Source: Alphaproteobacteria bacterium
Lineage (GTDB): Bacteria > Pseudomonadota > Alphaproteobacteria > MPNO01 > UBA830
DNA: 64,000 nt
NCBI GenBank assembly: GCA_964291215.2
Contig: OZ219791.1
Location: forward strand, 1,568,001 to 1,632,000
Direction of reading: 5' to 3'
Under the pieces are notes generated by a model that saw only the letters and a list, made by a program, of their open reading frames with translations, did no database searches and was not told where the DNA came from. Below are positions 36,631 to 52,083 of the stretch, piece by piece. Position 1 is the first letter of the stretch, and each line of letters starts with the position of its first letter. A program made the position numbers and the translations under genes.

Positions 36631-38145
36631 GTAACTGCTCACCCCCTGGTTCCGGCTTGATGTCGGGGTAGAGCAACGAACGGGTTTTCGTGGAGATTTG
36701 ACACTGCATGCCGATTCGCTTAGTGGTGGTCATCGAGAACGACGGGGACCGCCAGTGGGCTACTTTGGATCGAAGGCGACGAGCGGGCTGTGCCAGTTGC
36801 TTCCGGGGCTCCAGCCTCCGCATGATCTGTATGTGGAAACGCATCTCGGAAGCGGCGCGCTGATGAAGCGCAAGGCCGGGTGATGGCGACGGTCAACGCG
36901 GCGCGCGAGGAGTTCGAAGCGGCCAAGACCGCGGCGCTGCCGGCAAGGTGGCGGAAGAGGCCGTGATCCGCGTCCTCGTCATCCTGCTCGACATCCTCAT
37001 CGTCGTCCTTCTGGAGAAGACCACGCACGAGCCGGAACTCCGGTCTGCCGCCGTCACAGACGGACAAGAGCGTGCCGGAAGCAACGGCAAGGGCCCGAAG
37101 CCGAACCGGCAGATGGGCGACAACCTGCGCAAGACCATCGTCGAGGAAACGGTCGCGGCCTGCGACGCCTGCGGCGCCGACGGCCCCGTCGATCGGGAGC
37201 GCCGCACGACATCGTGTTCGAGGTCGTCGAGCGCCGCGTCGACACCGAGGAATGCCCGAAGTGCAAGGGCCGGTTCCCCGACAACATCCCGTGCAGTACG
37301 GCATCGGCATCCAAGCCCTCGTCATCAACCTGCTGGTCGCCCAGATGCTGTCCCTGCGCCGTGCCGTCGCGTTCGTGCAGTCGATCTCCGGCATCAAGCT
37401 CTCCGAGGCAACCTGCCTCGGCTATGCTTTCACGATGCGTCATGGGAGGAGGCCGCCGTGGCGCACCTCCTGCAACGCCCGATGTCGACGATTTCGGATC
37501 AACAGCAAGTGGCTCCATGTCGTGGGACCCTGACGTGCAAGTTCCCGCACCGCAAGCGCGGCCGGGAGGCAAGAGATCGGCCCGTGCTACAAGGGCGTCC
37601 TGGGCCTCGTACATGGGCCAGTGTAGCCACCAGCGGCAGCCACCTGCTGCGCGAACTGACCTTTGTCGTCGAGGCTACCGCGCGACTGATGAAGAGCCTG
37701 TTCCGCGAGGTCTGCCACAAGGTCAACAAGAGCGCATCCAAAACCCTGAACGACGCCGGGCGCAAGCGCTACCGCACCATCAGGGCGCCAGGGAACTGCC
37801 CGATATCCCGACGAAAGGAAAACGTGGACGCAAGTCCGACGCGCACAACCTGCACGAACGTCTCGTGAAACACGAAAACCTGCGCTTCACAGACGACCCC
37901 GACGTCAGCTTCACCAACAATGCCGGAGAACAGAAAATCAGGATGGCAAAGGTCAAGGTGTCCGGATGCTTCCGCACCATGCTCGACGCAAAAGCATGGT
38001 GCCGGGGCTCAAGCTACCTCACCTCCATGGCCGCACTCGGCTACAATCATCACGTTGCCACCCAGATCGCCCTCGACGGAAAAGCCGCAGACATCATCAA
38101 CGAGCACCACGACCAATCAGAACCCAACTAGGGGTGAGTAGATAC
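36631..38145 (+). mobile_element. IS66-family single-transposase (ISBst12-like) element 1 with methyltransferase remnant
   Basis: TIRs gtaactgctcacccc / ggggtgagtagatac; 8-bp TSD gtggactc; PVQYG, HLLREL, DVSFTNNAGEQKIRMAKV. Confidence 0.92.
36755..36883 (+). pseudogene. N-terminal remnant of an adenine DNA methyltransferase
   Basis: VGYFGSKATSGLCQLLPGLQPPHDLYVETHLGSGALMKRK, homologous to 45102-45761. Confidence 0.85.
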
Positions 38146-39953
38146 GTGGACTCAAATAATTGGTTTGCGATTCTGCGGAGCAAGAATCGGCTGGCAGCCA
38201 GTTGCACGGCGGAGAGGAAGTTCCTTGTCATAACGGGTGGCGACTCGTCGGAACTCCTTGATCTTGCCGAAAAACCGCTCGATCAGGTTGCGAATCCTGT
38301 AGATCTCGCGGTCGAGCGGCCGTGGCGATGTCCGGTTGGATTTCATGACCGCGGTTGCTCCTGCCGTCTCGATCAGATGGCGTCGGTGTCGTAGGCCTTG
38401 TCGCCGACCACCGTCTCGCTCGAGGTCGGCGAGAAGCGCCTCCGCCTGCGCGCAGTCGGCCGCTTGGCCCGGGGTCAGGAACACGGTCTTCACCCTCTCG
38501 TTCTCGCCAAGATGGACCTTCGTCGTTCGTCCGCCACGGCCCGATTTGCGAAGGCTCGTCGTCCCGGGACGCCTCAGCTTGTGAACGCGCACCGACAAGG
38601 AGTCGACCATGCGCAGGTGAACCGAGCCGGGCGGGCCATCGTCGCTCCCGTCACCATCGCTCGTAAGCCTTTGAAGCTTCTCCATGCCCAAGTGCCGTTC
38701 TTGCTCCACCGGTTGAAGCGGTTGAAGCAGACGGACCGTAGCGCAGGTCGCGCCACGGCGTACCGGTGCGAAGCACGAAGAATATCCCGTTCATGACCCT
38801 CCGGTCATGCACCCGCTCCGGGCCCTGGTGCTTGTCAGGAAGCACCGAGCGGAGAACTTTTCATTCCGCGTCGCTCATGTCGTGTCGGTCGCCGCTCATC
38901 CTTCACTCTCCTTGTGAATCGCTTTCGACAAGAATAAGGCAGATCATGCAAAATGTCAACATTTGGGTACACAACCTAACTGGTGGAATGTTGCCGGGTG
39001 CAAGTCCCGGCAGGAAGAGAGGCTAACCACCACTTTCTCCGTGAACCATGCGTCGTGAGGCGAAGCGTTGGTGAGCGGCAGGCCGGGCTATTGAGCCACG
39101 AGATTCTGTGAAACCGGAGTGCCGAGGTCGTGGCCGAAGGCAACACCCTGTGTGCCGTATTGGTGAGGCAGACGGGGGCTCCGCGGGGTCTGAGAACCAT
39201 GGCCGAAGCAGGGACCTGGGAGGTCTTTCAATTGTCCCTCTGTCGTGGAGGGGCCGCAGAGGAAAGGAACTAATCCGTAAACCGATGATGAACGAGAAGT
39301 CAGATTCGGCCATAGTACCGTTGAAGGCGGCGAACAAGGGTTCTTCGGAGCCTGCGGAGTTGTTTGAGGGAAGGGCAATGCGGTTGGCCCGCGCCGCGCG
39401 CAGAAGCGGGGGTCACAGGCGGCTGAACGCAGGTAGCGAAGAGGAACCCGGAAGAGCGTCTTTACTCCACCACGTGACGGTCGACATTCTGCACGATGCG
39501 TTCCATTCCTTGAGGAAGGACGCGGCGGCGGGCGTGGACGGCGTTGTGTGGCAAGCGTACGCGGAGGGTTTGGAAGACCGTCTGGTTGACCTGCACGCCC
39601 GTGTGCACAGGGGTGCGTACCGGGCGCCTCCAGGGTCTACATACCCAAGGAGGATGGAGGGCAACGACCGCTTGCCTCGCTGGAGGACAAGATTCTTCAG
39701 CGGGCGGTGTGATTCTGGTGCCGCGAGACGGAGTTCCTCGGGTTCAGTTACGGCTTCCGGCCGGGGCGCACAACGCGCTCGATGCAGTCACGGTGGAACG
39801 GCGGAAGGTCAACTGGATCGTTGACGCCCCTTCGACAACCGCGACCACCTGGTCGCGATGCTCGAGAGACGGATCGGGGGGTCTGATCATCAAGTGACGC
39901 CGGCATCATGGAAGGGACCGACTGGCAAGGGGACACCGCAGGGGGGCGATTGT

Positions 39954-42782: not shown

Positions 42783-42796
42783 GTGCGCCAGGCTAA
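42783..42796 (+). ncRNA. 5' end of a second copy of the inner group II intron
   Basis: gtgcgccaggctaa identical to the reconstructed 5' end at 36606. Confidence 0.6.
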
Positions 42797-43447
42797 CCCG
42801 AAGTTCCAGAAAATTCCGGCTGAAATGCACGTCAAATCATTGATGCAGCGTGGTTTATCGGATTTTTCGTGCGTCATATTGTACCCATGTAATACTGTGT
42901 TGGATGCTTGAGATCCATGAATCTGCCGCCTATATGCAGTAGCCATGTATATCGAATCCATCCCCAACCGCTCGTCCCCGCCCGCCATCCTGCTCCGCGA
43001 GTCCTGTCGCGAAGCCGGAACGGTCAAGAAGCGCACTCTCGCCAACCTTTCCAGGTGGTCGCCCGCTCTCATCGAGGGATTGCGCATTCTGCTCAAGGGA
43101 GGAACCGCAGGTCTCGACGACGCCTCGTCCGCTCTCTTCCCCATGGTCATGTGGCCGCAGTGCTGGGAACCCTGAAGAAACTGGACCGGCGGATCGACAT
43201 GAAGCCTTCTCCCGAGCGCGATCAGGTTCTCGCCATGATCGTGGCACGCATCCTTGAGCCCGCCTCGAAGCTGGCCAGGGGGCTGGCCGAGGCCACCGCG
43301 GTCAGCGCCTTGGGTGAGCTCCTCGATGCGGAGTTGGACGAGAATGCCCTCTACGGCGCCGGCTCCTGGAACGTCAGGAGAGGATTAAGCGATCCCTGGC
43401 GGCACCTCGAAGAAGGCTGTCTGGTGCTGTATGACCTGACTTCAGTG
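42797..43447 (+). mobile_element. IS1634-family element, 5' part, decayed
   Basis: MYIESIPNRSSPPAILLRES, KKRTLANLS, PHGHVAAVLG, PASKL, LVLYDLTS. Confidence 0.88.
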
Positions 43448-43630
43448 GATTACGCAACCTGATGTCTGGAAATTGTCGTGAAGCTCTCAGTCATCGAGCT
43501 GTTCCCATTTGATCTTGGTTTCGGTTTCCCATTTGTAACTGCCCAGGTCTGCTTCCGGCGATCAGCCACGGGTTATGGACTGAATCTTCCGGTCTGCTGC
43601 CGCGGACGCGGAGGCGAGCGGCGGGGGATT

Positions 43631-45033
43631 TCAGAGGCGCAGTCTCGGGATCAGCTGCATGGGATCGGGATGCGCCAGGGTTTCGAGGACATTCCAGCGT
43701 TGCTTTCGGGCTGTTGCGATGACGGAACGCAGGCTGGCGAAGTCGCGGGCGCCTTGCATTGATCGGAAGCCGCCCGAGATTTTCTGGCGCAGCTTGCCCA
43801 TGCGGAGGTCGCGCTCGGCCTGGTTGTTCGAGAAGGGGGTTCTCGGGTCGGTGAGGAAGCGCAGGCAGCCCTCCTTGTATTTCTGGAGCCGGAGGGCGAG
43901 GTTGTGACCGATGCGGCGCTTTTGTCGTCCGTGCTTTCCGCTCTGGAGGGGCGCCATCTCTTCGTGAGAGGCGATGGCCTGCTCAAGGATGCGGTCCCAG
44001 GCTCGGGAGATGCGGGCCACCAGTGAAGCGGGCAGGTCGCGGTCATTCTTGCGGGCGAAGCGGGCGGCTCTGTTGGCACGGCTGAGGAGCGGGTGCGTGG
44101 TGGCTGCCCAGTTCTCGATCTCGATCAGGGCTTGGAGTTCGCGCAGGTGATGGGCATTGCAGGCCCCGTGGCGCACGCCTTGGAGAGCGAAGTAGGTGGC
44201 GTAGTCGTCATGGATGACGATGCCGTTGAGCTTCTCGTCGATGTGGCTGCGCCCGGCGGCGATGCGCAGGATGGTCAGCAACGGGGTGCACAGTACGTGG
44301 AGCCATTGGGTCCGGGCGGCGATGCGGATGCCGGTCTCGTCGAGGTGTTTGACCGGGGCCGCGGTGCGGATGATCTCGCCGACACGGTCGAGGAAGCCCT
44401 CGAAGCGCCGGGCGGTGCGTCTGCCCATGGCGGCGATGGTGGCGGTTGAGAGCCTGACCGCGAAGAGGTCGCTCATGACTTCGGCGACGCGCTTCTCCGG
44501 AATGAACTGCGCGTGCAGCAGGTAGGTCACCCACGCGGTGATACGCGGCCCGTACTGGACCGGGGCGCCGTTCGGGAAGACGGCTGTCGTCACGGTGCCG
44601 CAGGCGGCACAGAGGCAGCGGTGCTCGGTGACCTGCGGTTCGGGCACATCGAAGACCTGCCGGCAGACGGGGGCTCGGTGACGCTCAGCGGCCGACAGCG
44701 GCGCGCCGCAGCCCGCACAGGCGCAGGGATCATGATCGACGACGTGGTCGGGCGTCGCGGTCCGCTCCAGAGTGGTTCCCTTGTGGCTGGCCGCCGCCTG
44801 TCGGACGTGCCGCTCCGGGTGCGCTGGGGTCCGCTCTTCTTCTTCAGACCGTCGCTGGCCGGCGACCGGGAGCTGGTGGTGCTGTCGAGCGCGGCACTGC
44901 GCTCGAGTTCGGCAATCCGCTCGCGCAAGTGGGCGTTCTCCCGCTCCAGCGCGTCGTTCTCCCTGACCAGCGCCGCGCTCAGGCGCAGCAGCCCCTGGCC
45001 CGGATGGCTTTGATGACCGTCATCGCCAGGCAT
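43631..45033 (-). pseudogene. IS66-family transposase with frameshifts and small deletions
   Basis: LDSTTSSRSPASDG, APVQYGPRI, HLDETG, CNAHHLREL, FSNNQAERDLRMGKLRQKISGGFRS. Confidence 0.9.
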
Positions 45034-45101
45034 TGTGGGGTGAAAAGGTCCTGCAGGCACGCAAAAGCCTCGTCGTGGCCGGCGAGGTCCTCGCGCCACC
45101 G

Positions 45102-45761
45102 TCACGGGACCTCGACGGCCATGATCGCGGCCAGCACCGCCAGGCGTTCGCCCGCCGGCATGGCCTCGTAGAGCCGGCCCCAGTTGGCCGCCTTGCGCTT
45201 GATGCGCTGGCGGTCGGTGAAGTTCCGGCCGGCGAAGCGCGCCCAGTGCACCCGGTCGGGCGCGAAGTTGAACCACACCACCTCGGTCCGCACCCGGGCC
45301 TGGGTCGTCACCTGCAGCGCCAGCCGGCGCCAGCCCGACAGCAGGTCGTCATAGAGCGCAGACGGGTGGCCCGAGACCATCACCTGGCAGGGCAGACCCT
45401 TGAGCAGCTCAAGCAGCGCGACGTGGTCGGCCTCCGCATACTCGAAGCGGTAGCGCTGCGACGAACGCCGGGTCGCGTGCAGATAGGGCGGATCGCTGTA
45501 GACCAGCTCCGGGCCCAGAAACGCAAACGACGCCAGAAAGGAGTGGGCGCAGCCATGCACCAACTCCACCGGGTAGTCGCAGCCAAAGGCCTCAAGCGCC
45601 CGCTCATCGAGGTCGATCCCGATCGAGCGCACGGCAGCAGGCTTGCGCTTCATCAGCGCACCGCCCCCCAGGTGACTCTCGATATAGACAGAGTGCGGCG
45701 GCATCAGCGCAATCAGCGCCTGGCTCAGACCCGTCGTCGCCTTCGATCCGAAATACCCCAC
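45102..45761 (-). CDS. D12/Dam-class N6-adenine DNA methyltransferase, apparently intact
   Basis: GTG start after RBS gggaggag; YFGSK, YIESHLGGGA (motif I), GIDLD, YSDPPY (motif IV), VMVSG, TEVVWFNF. Confidence 0.9.
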   Translation of the reverse strand: MGYFGSKATTGLSQALIALMPPHSVYIESHLGGGALMKRKPAAVRSIGIDLDERALEAFGCDYPVELVHGCAHSFLASFAFLGPELVYSDPPYLHATRRSSQRYRFEYAEADHVALLELLKGLPCQVMVSGHPSALYDDLLSGWRRLALQVTTQARVRTEVVWFNFAPDRVHWARFAGRNFTDRQRIKRKAANWGRLYEAMPAGERLAVLAAIMAVEVP

Positions 45762-46231
45762 CAGCCGCTCCTCCCATGCGAGAGGGCAACCCATAGGCGC
45801 GCGCGCCTATGCAGTCAAGGCCGAGAGCAGCGACACGGCGAACAAAATCAGCAAGCTCTCACACTTGGCAGGGTACCTGGGTAGTTACTCCCATTTTTCG
45901 TCGATGAGGACCGCGGTTAAGAGGCGCTCCAACGAGGCGAGGTTCGGAAAGACCCTGACTTTGGAGGTGCGCCGCTTGAGCTCTTGCTGGATCGGCCGCT
46001 CGATACCGTTCGAGGTTCGCATGCGCTTGCGGTGAGCATCGGGCAAGGTGAAGACAGCGAGCCCCGCATTCTTTTCCAGCCAGGAAGCTTGGATGCTTGT
46101 CGCGATAGCTGGCCACGAGGGCGCCCAGTTCAGCCTCGGCGGTTTGGAGTGAGGAGGCGTTCCAGACGGTTCCGAGCTGTTTTCCAATACGTTTCCTGAT
46201 GTCGTTGTTCGGTGCACGGCGTTTTGCGCTA

Positions 46232-47350
46232 GTGTCTTGTCATTCGTCAAATATCGGATAAAGGCGTTTGAGTTTCACGCGGGCATCGTCGGTGGTGAAC
46301 TGCCAATCCACCTTGGCCTGGATGCGGTCGCCTGCCAAGCGGCAACTTCCCGGCGTAGCACCTCGATGCAGTCGATGCGGCGGTTCAGGCGGATCATGAC
46401 GTTGAGTTCCACCACGTTCAGCCAACTGCCATGCTTGGGGGTGTAGACGAACTCGAAGCGGTCCCACAGGGCCTTGGCCTCGTCCGGCGGGTAGGCCTCG
46501 TAGAGGGCGCCGGGGAGTGTTGAGATTGTCCATCACCAGGGTGATGGTGGTGGCATCTTGGTAGCGCCCGGCGATGTCGGCCAGGAACTGCGCCCAATCG
46601 ATCTTGCGCTCGGTTACCTTGGTCATGCGCTTGCCGGCCAGGGGTTCCATGAAGACGTTGCAGGTACCGCAACGTCGATACTCGTAGTCGTTACGCGCTG
46701 GCTGTCCCGGCGCCATGGCGATCGGTTGCCGTGTCTCGCCGGTCGGGGCGTTTCGTCCATGCAGACCACGGGGAAAGCGGCGGGACGGCGATCGAGTACC
46801 TTCGCTGCGGCGAAGTCGGCGTTCCCTTGAGGAGGAATCACCCACCCGCTGCCATGGCTTGAGGCAGTTTTTTTAGAACACGCCGCACCGTCTCGTGTGA
46901 CACGGTGTAACCAAGCTCGACAACGCGGTCGGCCAGCAGCCGCAACGACCATTGCGCGTAACCCTCAGGCGGTTCACCACAACTCAGGGCCACCAAGCGC
47001 GCCTCGAAGACGCCGTCGGCTTTTCGCATGTAGGTAGGACGGCGTCCTTGCCGGCCACCCAATGCCGCCTCCAACCCCTCGAAACGCTTCTTTACTCGGT
47101 CTACTTTGCGCATGCTGATGCGCAGAATCTCAGCAATGACCTTCCCAGTCATCTGGCATTCATTGAACGCGCTCTCGTCGCAGTTAAGCAGGGCGTTGAT
47201 TACCTTTTGCGACAGGTGCGAGCCCTTGATCTCCGAAAGTTCTGCCCGTTCGTCCAGGGTCACCACGTAGCGTTTCATACTCCGACCTCCATCCCGAATG
47301 GACGGACAGTCTAGCACCAAATGTACGACATATCATTGCTGACATAACAC
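46232..47350 (-). mobile_element. IS630-family element, decayed
   Basis: TIRs gtgtcttgtca / rc gtgttatgtca, TA duplicated; WSLRLLADR, VVCMDETP, DYEYRRCGT, LVMDNLNT. Confidence 0.9.
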
Positions 47351-47804
47351 TAGGTGGAACTGGCAGCGCTGCCACGTCGCCGTGCCCAGCACCGCGCGTC
47401 GTGCCGCTTTCAGCCCGGCATCCGAGACGATGAAGGTCGTACCATGCAGGGCTAGCAAGCTTTCCAGGAAGGCTCTCCAATGGACCTCGGCCTCGGAGAG
47501 CGCCACAGAGAGCCCCAGAACGTGCCTGCAGCCCCTATTCCGATGGCCGAGAGCACTGCAACATCGCGCACAACGCCGTCATGGCGGGCTTTTTCATAGC
47601 GCGCATCCAGGATCAGGTATTTCATCAGGGGCCGGTTGCGCGGCGAGTTCTTCATCGAGCAACCTGGTGGCCCGGCTGACCTGAGAAGAGGACAGGCTCC
47701 CGAACTCGCGCATTACATCCTGCCGCGTGGAAACACCTTTGATGTACATCTCGGCTACGGCGCGAGAAGATCGCTGGCCGCGTTCAAGCGACTGGGGACG
47801 GGTC

Positions 47805-49057
47805 GATTACGCAACCTGATGTCTGGAAATTGTCGTGAAGCTCTCAGTCATCGAGCTGTTCCCATTTGATGTATGCCTTGGTTTCGGTTTCCCATTTTTC
47901 GTCGATGAGGACCGCGGTTGAGAGGCGCTCCAACAAGGCGAGGTTCGGAAAGACCCTGACTTTGGAGGTGCGCCGCTTGAGTTCTTGCTGGATCGGTCGC
48001 TCGATGCCGTTCGAGGTTCGCATGCGCTTGCGGTGAGCATCGGGCAAGGTGAAGACAGCGAGCCCCTCGGGCGCATTCTTTGATGCTTGTCGCGATAGCT
48101 GGCCACGAGGGCGCCCAGTTCAGCCTCGGCGGTTTGGAGTGAGGACGCATGGCTCCGAGCTGTTTTCCAATACGTTTCCTGATGTCGTTGTTCGGTGCAC
48201 GGCGTTTTGCGCCAAGTGGAACTGGCAGCGCTGCCACGTCGCCGCGCCCAGCACCGCGCGTCGTGCCGCTTTCAACCCAGCATGGTCATCCGAGACGATG
48301 AAAGTCGTGCTATGCAGGGCTAGCAAGCTTTCCAGGAAGGCTCTCCAATGGACCTCGGCCTCGGAGAGCGCCACAGAGAGCCCCGGAACGTGCCTGCAGC
48401 CCCTATTCCAATGGCCGAGAGTACCGCGACATCGCGCACAACGCCGTCATGGCGGGCTTTTTCGTAGCGCGCATCCAGGTATTTCATCAGGGGCCGGTTG
48501 CGCGGCGAGTTCTTCATCGAGCAACTTGGTGGCCCGGCTGACCTGAGAAGAGGATAGGCTCCCGAACTCGCGCATTACATCTTCGGCTTGCCGCGTGGAA
48601 ACACCCTTGATGTACATCTCGGCTACGGCCAGCATGACGGCGCGAGAAGATCGCTGGCCGCGTTCAAGCGACTGGGGGGTCGTCCCCGTGACCGGCCGTC
48701 TTTGGCACCTGAACGGTAACAGTGGGGGTGTCGATCCGCTTGTAGCCGTTGGCATAGCCCTGTCGTTCCGGTGTCCGGTGGCCCGCTTTCAAGTGCTGCT
48801 CGCGCTCGATTTGCATCGCAAGCTCGAAGAGCTGACCAAAGATCCGCCCCAGATCCGTTGCTCCGTTTGCGATCAGATGTTCCAAAACAGTCCCGATCGT
48901 CGTAGTGTGTCGCAGGTCCATTCGCTTCCTCCATGAATGTTTACAGCTCCATGGGATAGCACGATGGCGCCGCGTTTCACTGGGGGGCTAGCCCCCCCAG
49001 TGAAACGCCTCAAAGCGCAAACCTCAGACAAATTTCCAGACATCAAGTTACAGTACC
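47805..49057 (-). mobile_element. IS256-family copy B, both ends present, decayed
   Basis: IRs gattacgcaacctgatgtctggaaatt / rc ggtactgtaacttgatgtctggaaatt; AEMYIKGVSTR, VSDDHAGL. Confidence 0.9.
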
Positions 49058-49086: not shown

Positions 49087-49444
49087 TCTCCATGCTCCGA
49101 ACGCGCCCGCAAACAACGCGATCACCCTCGCAATCATCATCCGCAACAAGCGCAAGCTGCGCAAACCCTTCAACAGCTTCGTCGACACCACCATGCGGAC
49201 AAGCGCAAGCAGGTCCTGCACGCAATCACAAGACCAGGCTGACCGCGCCTCTCTCCCCGACAGAAACTGCAAGCTTTCGAGCCCGGCAACCAAGGCCTCT
49301 CGCCCGCCCCGGATACGCCGACCAATCGCGCCCCGCGCCGTAACAGCGCGTCAGCAAATCTCAAAATCGCAGCCTCGAACGCGTCGACCCGTGCCGCGAT
49401 CAGGACTCCGATCACATCACATCAACAAGCATGGGATCACCTTG
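49087..49444 (+). mobile_element. Right-end fragment of a second DUF4338-ISAs1-like copy
   Basis: Colinear with 30492-30854; ends in agcatgggatcaccttg. Confidence 0.88.
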
Positions 49445-49454
49445 GGCTTCCACC

Positions 49455-49887: not shown

Positions 49888-52083
49888 ATGTCGAACCTGG
49901 GCAAACCACTGGATGAACGCGGTGAACCCGAGGTACTTGCGGGTCTCGTCGAACGTGTGACCTTTCACAATGACGAGAACGGTTTCAGCGTTCTTCGCGT
50001 CAAGGTCAGGGGCCGCCGCGATCTCGAAACGGTGATCGGCCATGCCCCGGCGATCGGAGCCGGGGAATGGATCACGGCTTCCGGCGAGTGGGTGGAAGAC
50101 CGCAGCTACGGCCGTCAGTTCAAGGCACGCTTTCTCCGAACGTCGCAGCCGACCTCTATCGAGGGGGTCCGGAGGTATCTGGCCTCCGGCATGATCCACG
50201 GTATCGGCAAGGTCTACGCGGCGAAGCTGGTGCAGGCGTTTGGAGAGGATGTCTTTGACGTCATCGAGAACCGTCCCGAGAGACTACGGGAAGTGAGCGG
50301 GATCGGTCCGGTACGGGCTGCCCGCATCGTCGAGGCGTGGGCGGAGCAGAAGGTCGTGCGCGAGATCATGGTGTTCCTCCATGAGCACGGCGTCAGCACC
50401 GCTCGTGCAGTCCGCATCTTCAAGACATACGGCGTCGACTCGGTGCAGGTGATGTCCGAAAACCCGTACCGTCTCGCGCGCGACATCCGCGGCATCGGAT
50501 TCAGGACGGCCGACGTGATCGCGATGCAGCTCGGCATCGAGAAGACGGCGATGATCCGGATCCGTTCAGGAATTTCCTTCGCTCTTGCCGAAGCGATGAA
50601 TGACGGCCATTGCGGATTACCGCGCGACAGGCTGATTGCGGATACCGCCAGCCTTCTGGAAGTTGCTCCGGACCTCGTCGCCGATGCACTGGAGCAGGAG
50701 ATTGGCGACGGTTTCGTGGTGGTCGACAGGGTCGGGGACACGGAATGCGTCTTTCTGCTTGCGCTGTACCGCGCCGAGGCTTATATCGCGCGCCGGCTTC
50801 ATGCGTTGCGTCGCGGCGACCGCCCGTGGCCGGAGATAGACGGCGACAGGGCTATCCCGTGGGTGCAGCAGCATACCGGCCTCAAGCTCGCCGACAGCCA
50901 GAAGGAAGCGGTGCGCACGGCGCTTCTTTCAAAGGTCATGGTCGTCACCGGCGGGCCCGGTGTTGGCAAGACGACGATCGTCAACGCGATATTACGGATT
51001 CTCGCCGCCAAGCAGGTCCGGATTGCGCTGTGTGCGCCGACGGGCCGCGCCGCTAAACGCATGGCCGAGGCCACCGGACGCGAGGCAAAGACGATTCACC
51101 GGCTGCTCGAGGTGGATCCGCGCTACGGTACCTTCCGGCGAACCGAGGAAAACCCGCTTGAGTGCGACCTCCTGGTTGTCGACGAGGCCTCGATGGTCGA
51201 TGTCATGCTGATGTACGCGTTGCTGAGCGCTCTGCCGGGGAACGCGGCGTTGCTCGTGGTCGGCGACGTGGACCAGTTGCCCTCGGTCGGGCCGGGACAG
51301 GTGCTTGCGGACGTGATCGGAAGCGGCATGCTGCCGGTCGCCCGCCTTACCGAAGTCTTCCGGCAGGCGGCGGAGAGCCGGATAATCGTCAATGCCCACC
51401 GCATAAACGAGGGCGAGATCCCCGAACTTGGCCGGCCCGACGGCGAAAGCGATTTCTATTTCGTGCGGGCGGATAAACCGGAAACCGCTCTGCAGCGCAT
51501 CATCGAGCTTGTCGGTACCCGCATACCGGGACGTTTCGGGCTCGATCCGGTCGAGGACATCCAGGTGCTGTGCCCGATGCAGCGCGGCGATGTCGGTGCC
51601 CGACGGCTCAACAAGGAGCTTCAGGAGACTCTCAACCCTTCGGAAGAGCGCAAGGTGGAGCGTTTCGGCTGGACCTTTTCTCGCGGCGATAAGGTGATGC
51701 AGACCGAAAACGATTACGACCGCGAGGTCTATAACGGCGATATCGGTTTCGTTCAGGATGTCGATCCGGAGGCTGCGGAGGTCACGGTCGAATTCGACGG
51801 CCGGACGCTAGCCTACGGATTCGGCGAGCTTGATGCGCTGGTGCCAGCCTATGCGACGACGATTCACAAGGCGCAGGGTTCCGAATATCCCGCCGTCGTC
51901 ATTCCTGTGACGACCCAGCATTACATCATGCTACAACGCAATCTCCTCTATACTGGCGTAACGCGTGGCAAGCGGCTGGTGGTTCTGGTCGGCCAGCACA
52001 AGGCCGTCGCCATAGCCGTCGGAGCGGCGTCGGGGCGGCGCAGATGGTCGAAGCTTCGCGAATGGCTTGAGGGCAACGCATAG
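49888..52083 (+). CDS. recD2: ATP-dependent RecD-like DNA helicase (RecD2)
   Basis: VERVTFHNDENG, HhH repeats, TGGPGVGKT, VDEASM, GDVDQLPSVG, TIHKAQGSEY, LLYTGVTR. Confidence 0.93.
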   Translation: MSNLGKPLDERGEPEVLAGLVERVTFHNDENGFSVLRVKVRGRRDLETVIGHAPAIGAGEWITASGEWVEDRSYGRQFKARFLRTSQPTSIEGVRRYLASGMIHGIGKVYAAKLVQAFGEDVFDVIENRPERLREVSGIGPVRAARIVEAWAEQKVVREIMVFLHEHGVSTARAVRIFKTYGVDSVQVMSENPYRLARDIRGIGFRTADVIAMQLGIEKTAMIRIRSGISFALAEAMNDGHCGLPRDRLIADTASLLEVAPDLVADALEQEIGDGFVVVDRVGDTECVFLLALYRAEAYIARRLHALRRGDRPWPEIDGDRAIPWVQQHTGLKLADSQKEAVRTALLSKVMVVTGGPGVGKTTIVNAILRILAAKQVRIALCAPTGRAAKRMAEATGREAKTIHRLLEVDPRYGTFRRTEENPLECDLLVVDEASMVDVMLMYALLSALPGNAALLVVGDVDQLPSVGPGQVLADVIGSGMLPVARLTEVFRQAAESRIIVNAHRINEGEIPELGRPDGESDFYFVRADKPETALQRIIELVGTRIPGRFGLDPVEDIQVLCPMQRGDVGARRLNKELQETLNPSEERKVERFGWTFSRGDKVMQTENDYDREVYNGDIGFVQDVDPEAAEVTVEFDGRTLAYGFGELDALVPAYATTIHKAQGSEYPAVVIPVTTQHYIMLQRNLLYTGVTRGKRLVVLVGQHKAVAIAVGAASGRRRWSKLREWLEGNA

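Follow-up and report, generated by a model that had tools for sequence, protein, structure and literature searches.

The window analysed here is a 64,000-nt stretch of an alphaproteobacterial genome (G000:C2:1568001-1632000; G000 comprises 6.15 Mb in two contigs, at 64% GC), in which two damaged copies of an IS256-family insertion sequence (IS) lie in a nest of mobile elements. Copy A is split by a young IS66 element and by an IS630-family element, and copy B adjoins it (Table 1). Both are members of a 73-copy (near-full) family, and each carries 13 deletions of 5-12 nt relative to the undeleted family state, after exclusion of a 4-nt "junction", which was an artefact of one copy's insertion, and of a poly-C length difference. 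Short deletions of this kind are a real, surprising and genome-wide phenomenon in G000 and in its congener G002. On balance it is likely that each of them arises once and is then copied into other members of the repeat family through short-patch gene conversion biased towards the shorter allele.

The three collapses of short direct repeats that a preliminary description of this DNA had reported between the two copies are present at the positions it gave, and the places at which it had found residues absent from both (EFG^SLSS, LLA^LH, QNAVH^) are among the seven deletions common to the pair. The occurrence of these in both copies is to be expected, since all seven are carried by 57-71 of the 73 genomic copies; every deletion of copy B is likewise found in 32-72 of them. 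Once restored, the undeleted family sequence matches an intact IS256 transposase of 393 aa (P0001) over a gap-free alignment with 90% identity, and in comparisons with intact open reading frames of other genomes the high-copy families lacked 5-7 nt blocks 447 times, the reverse occurring 0 times. The missing blocks are therefore deletions. The substitutions between copies had been described as mostly synonymous and as dating mostly from a functional past, and the counts agree with both statements: the common single-nucleotide polymorphisms (SNPs) comprise 28 synonymous and 18 nonsynonymous changes (omega 0.27), and singletons have an omega of 0.58. The sparing of the host genes of the window was also confirmed, as 20.9 kb of host DNA aligned to the congener G001 lacked just one 5-nt block. 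The supposed "ISAs1-like tails", by contrast with that description, belong to the two IS256 copies themselves, whose 3' halves they form (PF00872 positions 300-376; blast). A second, two-copy IS256 type (G000:C1:885026-886291, C2:3220137-3221402) is fully open, unlike the 73-copy family.

Table 1. Positions of the IS256 copies, the elements inserted in them and other repeats, in window coordinates.
Feature	Position	Strand	Remarks
IS256 copy B	47803..49057	-	PF00872; 13 deletions of 5-8 nt
IS256 copy B, deletion junctions	after 47901, 48150, 48195, 48316, 48396, 48475, 48488, 48501, 48559, 48676, 48723, 48737, 48777	-	
IS256 copy A, middle of gene (5' end missing)	47353..47800	-	8 deletions, after 47416, 47448, 47528, 47626, 47639, 47697, 47718, 47756
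IS256 copy A, C-terminal coding part	45889..46227	-	PF00872; 4 deletions, after 45900, 46064, 46083, 46212
IS256 copy A, 3' end with terminal repeat	43448..43531	-	1 deletion, after 43513
Young IS66 element inside copy A	43535..45888	-	8-bp target duplication
Dam-like methyltransferase gene, open, within IS66	45102..45794	-	TIGR00571, below cut-off
IS630-family element inside copy A	46230..47352	-	14 deletions, each 5-7 nt; the family (37 full copies) averages 13.5
Group II intron domain I fragment	39001..39198	+	member of 38-copy intron family
High-copy repeat segment (196 matches)	36900..37500		window copy lacks 10 blocks of 5-12 nt
Repeat segment (33 matches)	42790..43447		window copy lacks blocks of 5, 7 and 7 nt
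Short high-copy repeat (59 matches)	49088..49445		window copy lacks blocks of 6, 6, 7, 7 and 8 nt

Deletion size, load and copy number

Five genomes were compared, G000 and the congeners G001, G002, G003 and G004. Repeated DNA makes up 33.6% of G000 by k-mer tiling, and the same tiling was used to sample repeats genome-wide, giving 20,409 repeat alignments from 500 of 3,415 tiles. Gaps of 5-7 nt constitute 68% of all gaps in these alignments, with a second peak at 11-14 nt. Distinct gap alleles, counted in 153 tiles, numbered 174 at 5 nt, 432 at 6 nt, 247 at 7 nt and 54 at 8 nt, compared with 93 at 1 nt; alleles with at least two carriers numbered 90, 229, 138 and 25 at 5, 6, 7 and 8 nt and 27 at 1-4 nt. 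This fixed size, which the preliminary description had missed, is the defining feature of the deletions. Most alleles of 10-14 nt (74 of 104) enclose a separately observed 5-7 nt allele. Re-cutting at the same site was considered for the 11-14 nt alleles (67 vs 457) and rejected, their number being about that given by random adjacency in a rough estimate.

The deletions lie at random positions and show little microhomology. At the 624 sites of G000 the mean is 1.72 nt, a modest enrichment over the 0.83 nt given by chance; 343 sites have 0-1 nt, 190 of them none, and 86 have at least 4 nt, where about 18 would be expected. The microhomology-bounded character ascribed to the junctions is to be corrected accordingly. 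In the sampled repeats of G002, 193 of 239 distinct gap alleles are 5-7 nt long, with a mode of 5-6 nt and microhomology at chance level (0.85), and ordinary gap spectra were found in the repeats sampled from G003 (16.6 kb) and G004 (41 kb). The repeats of G001 are collapsed (5 kb).

The deletion load of G000 repeats is 13.3 per kb (1,044 copy segments, 28 family tiles), and it rises with copy number, from 0.03-0.14 per kb at one copy to 0.2-0.4 at 2-4 copies, 1.4-3.0 at 5-14 copies and 13.4 at 15 or more. In the host intergenic comparison that the preliminary description had proposed, single-copy DNA has a load of about 0.6 per kb, against about 13 per kb in high-copy families, and its view of a high-rate process distinct from drift is upheld. 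In single-copy DNA compared with G001, it is G000 that mostly lacks the 5-7 nt blocks (34 vs 9 times in 56.6 kb of intergenic DNA and 37 vs 4 times in 594 kb of coding DNA), and gaps of 1-4 nt were near even. This single-copy excess may be partly a different process, because its sizes spread more widely and its junctions have more microhomology (mean 2.1); its rate is of the same order as that of IS256 origins per copy-kb (44 alleles in 73 x 1.25 kb).

The load classes, together with a family of host genes, indicate that damage follows copy number and not gene type. The fibronectin-III family (L278:1-5625 and seven paralogues) encodes proteins of 1,300-2,000 aa in open frames rich in 6-nt gaps. 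Its eight intact copies contain 35 six-nt and 9 three-nt gap alleles and zero of 5 or 7 nt, which is what the process would leave behind if frameshifts were eliminated by selection. The deletions are concentrated in mobile DNA, as had been claimed, but they are tied to copy number and not to transposon identity. Other surface protein families of G000 are RTX-repeat and TbpB-like.

Origin and spread of the deletion alleles

At 303 sites the commonest exact allele accounts for 92% of the deleted copies, and at 94 sites without microhomology for 93%. A distinct second allele was counted 11 times at shared sites, where chance would give 10.8, and 138 rarer alleles lie elsewhere. Because the exact allele dominates and second alleles are at chance, new deletions land at random and shared ones are copies, which contradicts the proposal that paralogues had suffered the same deletions independently. 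IS256 copies are fine mosaics, in which SNP linkage reaches background within about 20-40 bp and 83-97% of deletion pairs at least 20 bp apart violate the four-gamete condition. In the 38-copy family of group II introns, the least-deleted copy has 8 deletions, all of them alleles held by 18-37 copies, and it differs from its nearest neighbour by 2 SNPs and 27 deletions; tandem intron units have 19-25 deletion alleles in common. No relation was found between deletion load and private SNPs in IS256, nor between genomic distance and allele sharing. Pairs of IS256 copies with shared flanks were not usable as duplications. Head-to-tail arrays of two or three group II introns are found at a single site within a repeated host element (G000:C2:1319959-1324996, C2:123780-126933, C2:153802-157185).

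Several observations point to a bias in the copying. The median copy frequency is 0.23-0.37 for alleles of 5-7 nt and 0.03-0.08 for those of 1-4 and 9-10 nt, and the frequency spectrum of deletion alleles is flat. In the intron family, leaving out one divergent copy and its 8 private alleles, singletons make up 7 of 66 deletion alleles vs 81 of 190 SNPs. Each IS256 copy carries 17.7 deletions vs 2.75 private SNPs; about 8% of high-copy repeat DNA has been lost, and private SNPs affect well under 1% (0.2% in IS256). The SNP load is low, with C>T as the commonest class. In a fixed-size simulation, only fully biased conversion with about 10 events per site (1 of 18 settings) reproduced both load and spectrum, yielding 30 alleles, a load of 17.6 and 62% of alleles in at least a quarter of copies, where 44, 17.7 and 50% were observed; neutral conversion never did so. 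Moreover, deletions are less linked to nearby SNPs (linkage disequilibrium |D'| of 0.55 at 10-20 bp and 0.49 at 20-40 bp) than SNPs are mutually (0.81 and 0.73), which indicates that deletions travel in separate short patches. Deleted segments prefer the ends N-Y...R-N, found in 55 of 92 high-frequency alleles (23.5 expected) and 12 of 37 singletons (9.6 expected), and the preference is also present in G002, where it is strongest. Since it rises with allele frequency, loop sequence seems to govern spread.

A three-step mechanism could produce this pattern. An enzyme, postulated here, would rarely excise 5-7 nt, about half a helical turn, and RecA would form heteroduplexes between repeat copies. 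MutS/MutL would handle base mismatches and loops of 1-4 nt, from which loops of 5-7 nt would mostly escape, to be cut out by a likewise postulated loop-directed repair whose patch would reach about 20 nt at most to either side. The outcome is observed: single-copy genes stay clean, a multicopy host family keeps almost only in-frame losses, and IS and intron families are broken together. The frames of MutS, MutL, RecA and RecJ are open in all five genomes.

Candidate machinery and alternative readings

Profile searches, in which positive controls matched, found Ku and ATP-dependent ligase in 0 of 5 genomes each. The Piwi domain (PF02171) was likewise found in 0 of 5 with controls matched, although divergent short forms could be missed, and a pPIWI-RE search matched nowhere. 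RtcB is present in 0 of 5 genomes. NucS (PF01939), Topo IB, Vsr and Mu-transpos_C had no match in G000; in G002 there were two weak matches to NucS, 8 to Vsr and one strong match to Mu-transpos_C. The AEP polymerase profile (AEP-TOTE, PF22548) gave only a 35-aa match (35 of 230 positions), in G000 only, the IS-excision enhancer (IEE) itself not having been used as a query. CRISPR spacers matched genome repeats in 0 of 111 cases in G000 and sampled element loci in 0 of 238 cases in G002. The CRISPR systems of G000 are of types I-G, III-B and II-C: a 96-repeat array with a Cas4-Cas1 fusion and type I-G genes adjoins a type III-B Cmr module whose Cas10 is short, at 632 aa (G000:C1:574247-599720), and a type II-C Cas9 locus with 17 repeats lies separately (G000 C2:2063954-2069600). 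Of the five genomes, just two (G000 and G002) have type III-B RAMP genes, and three (G000, G001 and G002) have SspB and reverse transcriptases; such distribution matches among five genomes are leads only.

At the deletions there was no restriction-modification or phosphorothioate motif, no clear hairpin-centre signal, no mod-6 phasing (23 pairs) and no SNP excess inside the deleted intervals (a shared SNP in 86 of 238 vs 80.3 expected). Apart from a weak codon periodicity, no distant recognition motif (type IIS/III, protospacer-adjacent motif) was found beyond about 5 nt from the breakpoints. A survey of nested insertions (40 of 107 events resolved) showed no clear 5-7 bp target-duplication class. 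An exclusion zone between sites, strong with filters (26 vs 82 below 16 nt) and weaker in filter-free alignments (36 vs 61), was not relied on. Target-site-duplication footprints were ruled out, as the blocks do not form tandem duplicates and bring back conserved residues. Among the defence genes of G000 are an SspABCD phosphorothioation cluster with DndB (L238:9507-17862), BREX-like, CBASS-like, Thoeris-like TIR and Mrr genes, two MmeI-like genes and five copies of hsdM with open frames. A pair of nearly identical, low-GC elements with three integrases each (RIT-like), both open, is also present (L246:7518-11007, L250:9795-13416), and in G002 a multicopy gene (L266:18287-19999) fuses a Druantia DruA domain to an ISAs1-type DDE transposase.

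Against spread by biased conversion stand several points. The bias is deduced from the frequency spectrum and simulations and not from polarised counts of gain and reversion at one locus, and the simulations, both of drive and of dead masters, are crude. Pooled |D'| between deletions is 0.37-0.56, intermediate between about 0.25 in the drive model and 0.4-0.99 in the master model. Copies interrupted by other elements are less deleted (1,625 vs 1,826 expected), although these counts are not independent and IS256 and the intron show no difference. The low-copy load classes do not form a neutral control, because they are mostly host genes under selection, and the gaps of the fibronectin family were counted without polarity. 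Ordinary loop repair leaves unexplained why alleles of 9-10 nt do not spread and why the sampled repeats of G003 and G004 lack the pattern. Pfam and PADLOC searches of the CRISPR loci and of 107 atypical genes (out of 160 listed, in 20 regions totalling about 0.36 Mb) found no candidate effector, only ordinary defence genes. The IS66 and intron families are also to be counted here. Nine full copies of the young IS66 are about 99.5% alike, and in the copy that was aligned about 9 small gaps or frameshifts separate the transposase from intact relatives; these gaps are fixed, with no 5-7 nt deletion segregating among the nine copies and no intact helper found, and they therefore also fit amplification of an already dead master. 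In the intron family, shared deletions remove domain I helix arms and the start of domain V (24 of 38 copies), and since the introns occupy one repeated host site, the copies without the start of domain V may have been carried along passively.

Descent from dead masters thus probably contributes. It is unlikely, though, that the pattern as such goes back to deletions made during amplification (by transposition in trans or during passage as foreign DNA), inherited and later shuffled by unbiased conversion. Such a history would agree with the fixed gaps of IS66 and the true target duplication of its window copy, with the lower load of interrupted copies, with introns riding in a repeated host site and with a positive linkage between deletions at all distances. 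However, it predicts |D'| between deletions of at least 0.9 below 20 bp and a load variance of 29-55, whereas IS256 gives 0.56 and 16; short-range linkage and load variance are nearer to the drive simulations (variance 7-12). It also needs several deletions per SNP on the master line, but the consensus private residues, 11 in IS256 and 12 in IS66, are within the range of intact relatives, and both the 6-nt excess of the fibronectin family and the motif that grows with frequency are left unexplained. The quantised size without microhomology could instead reflect a dedicated homology-sensing or guided nuclease, which would make a 5-7 nt staggered break in the long allele, repair from a deleted copy then spreading the scar in a homing-like manner. 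The weak symmetric end motif, strongest in G002, resembles the Mu target consensus N-Y-S-R-N, and the patchy distribution within the genus, including that of the RAMP and SspB genes, would suit such an enzyme. It is nevertheless improbable, given the lack of excess second alleles at shared sites, the negative spacer comparisons, the failure of Piwi, NucS, RtcB and Topo IB profiles to match in G000, and the absence of phasing, of SNP excess and of restriction-modification or phosphorothioate motifs described above. NucS/EndoMS cleavage at mismatches leaves a 5-nt overhang, but in G000 neither the expected nucS gene nor mismatch-centred deletions were found. Excision and religation guided by type III RNA would bring 6-nt phasing and an RtcB ligase; no phase was seen among the 23 pairs, and RtcB was absent from all five genomes.

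Recurrent deletion by microhomology-mediated end joining (MMEJ) or slippage at hot spots, the cause favoured in the preliminary description, draws on the enriched microhomology of G000. It is very improbable as the source of the shared alleles, for 30% of the sites have no microhomology and yet show the same dominance of one exact allele, G002 is at chance, breakpoints are identical, allele frequency does not rise with microhomology, and the single-copy intergenic load is about 20 times lower. The genome also offers only the AEP fragment, no Ku and no ATP-dependent ligase. An artefact of assembly or polishing that scrambled alleles among repeats could account for the loss of IS256 SNP linkage within about 20 bp, and the allele check rests on short-read contigs and not on the raw long reads that had been proposed for it. 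Still, such an artefact is hardly credible, since the short-read contigs of three samples contain both long and short alleles at several sites, conserved residues reappear with the long allele, no scrambling affects the young IS66 family or the low-copy repeats, and a second genome, G002, has the pattern with a different size mode.

Some features of the window and its setting lie outside these questions. The methyltransferase gene precedes the IS66 transposase, and about 20 further G000 elements contain this cassette at 70-78% identity. An open RecD2 helicase gene (window 49888-52083) adjoins the IS nest. CTAG within the left end of IS256 (e.g. window 48985-49000) is a recurrent landing site of 1.2-kb and 2-kb elements, with at least 9 events. 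The TypA of the window has 95% identity to that of an Alphaproteobacteria metagenome-assembled genome. The fibronectin-repeat families make a sponge habitat plausible; it is not established, because the relatives found in a sponge metagenome run are all below about 90% identity.

Known systems and biological meaning

Fungal repeat-induced point mutation (RIP) inflicts copy-number-scaled damage on host duplicates and transposons alike, by new C-to-T changes that involve a methyltransferase-like effector, RID, and a sexual cycle. The deletions described here resemble it in that damage scales with copy number, reaches host duplicates and breaks whole families. They differ in being copied between copies instead of arising as new C-to-T changes, with no sexual cycle and no RID-like effector found. 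Of the RIP-like mechanism first proposed, the outcome therefore stands, and the likely engine is gene conversion, which the preliminary description had listed as a refutation. In animals, deletion-biased nonallelic gene conversion has a 3.4-fold bias and has caused shrinkage over thousands of millions of years (PMC3280953). There too a deletion that originated in one paralogue is passed on to further ones, the paralogues lose length jointly and conversion is faster than mutation; here, unlike there, the host is a bacterium, the size of 5-7 nt is sharp, about 8% of repeat DNA has been lost, a sequence preference exists and the distribution within the genus is patchy. Identical indel alleles produced by copying are found in both; a polarised excess toward the short allele is here only suggested by the spectrum and simulations. 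The process is a member of neither system as defined, because its bias is not directly polarised and its lesions are quantised deletions.

Bacterial mismatch repair fades above 4-nt loops, and Escherichia coli has a loop repair independent of it, whose proteins were listed as unidentified in 2008 (PMC2504288). The 5-nt lower edge of the spreading class coincides with the size at which mismatch repair fades; loop repair as described there takes loops of up to hundreds of bases, whereas alleles of 9-10 nt and of at least 15 nt are rare here. Short-patch double illegitimate recombination in Acinetobacter baylyi is very rare, covers 3-100 bp and is suppressed by RecA, RecJ and DprA (10.1101/2023.11.22.568220). 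It shares with the present case a short-patch templated change from ectopic DNA, but here the size is quantised, and both recA and recJ have open frames. The AEP polymerase IEE, which has MMEJ activity, promotes excision of whole elements and joins ends with at least 4 bp of homology (PMC9943667). Both activities remove IS DNA and leave deletions; those of G000 are internal losses of 5-7 nt, often without homology, and its only AEP trace is the 35-aa match. Whereas MMEJ or IEE would entail several bases of junction microhomology at most events, such homology is wholly absent from 190 of the 624 G000 sites and at chance in G002. No bacterial report of a 5-7 nt deletion signature was met in the literature searched, where deletion-biased conversion appeared only in animals; most subscription papers were outside that search, and the result is therefore not proof of novelty.

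Families of 15 or more copies occupy about 1.26 Mb of G000, which at 13 per kb would correspond to about 17,000 such deletions. Tentatively, the process may be regarded as a possible bacterial counterpart of RIP, in which a lineage-specific enzyme system excises half-turn pieces, pairing drives their spread, and whole sets of IS and introns are inactivated together, leaving single-copy genes untouched. Bacterial loop repair can be approached directly through the narrow size range, the end motif and the difference between congeners. Spread of this kind would be a route by which a bacterium ends an IS explosion without removing the elements and, since the damage becomes common to all copies, the more copies a family has, the faster it would die.

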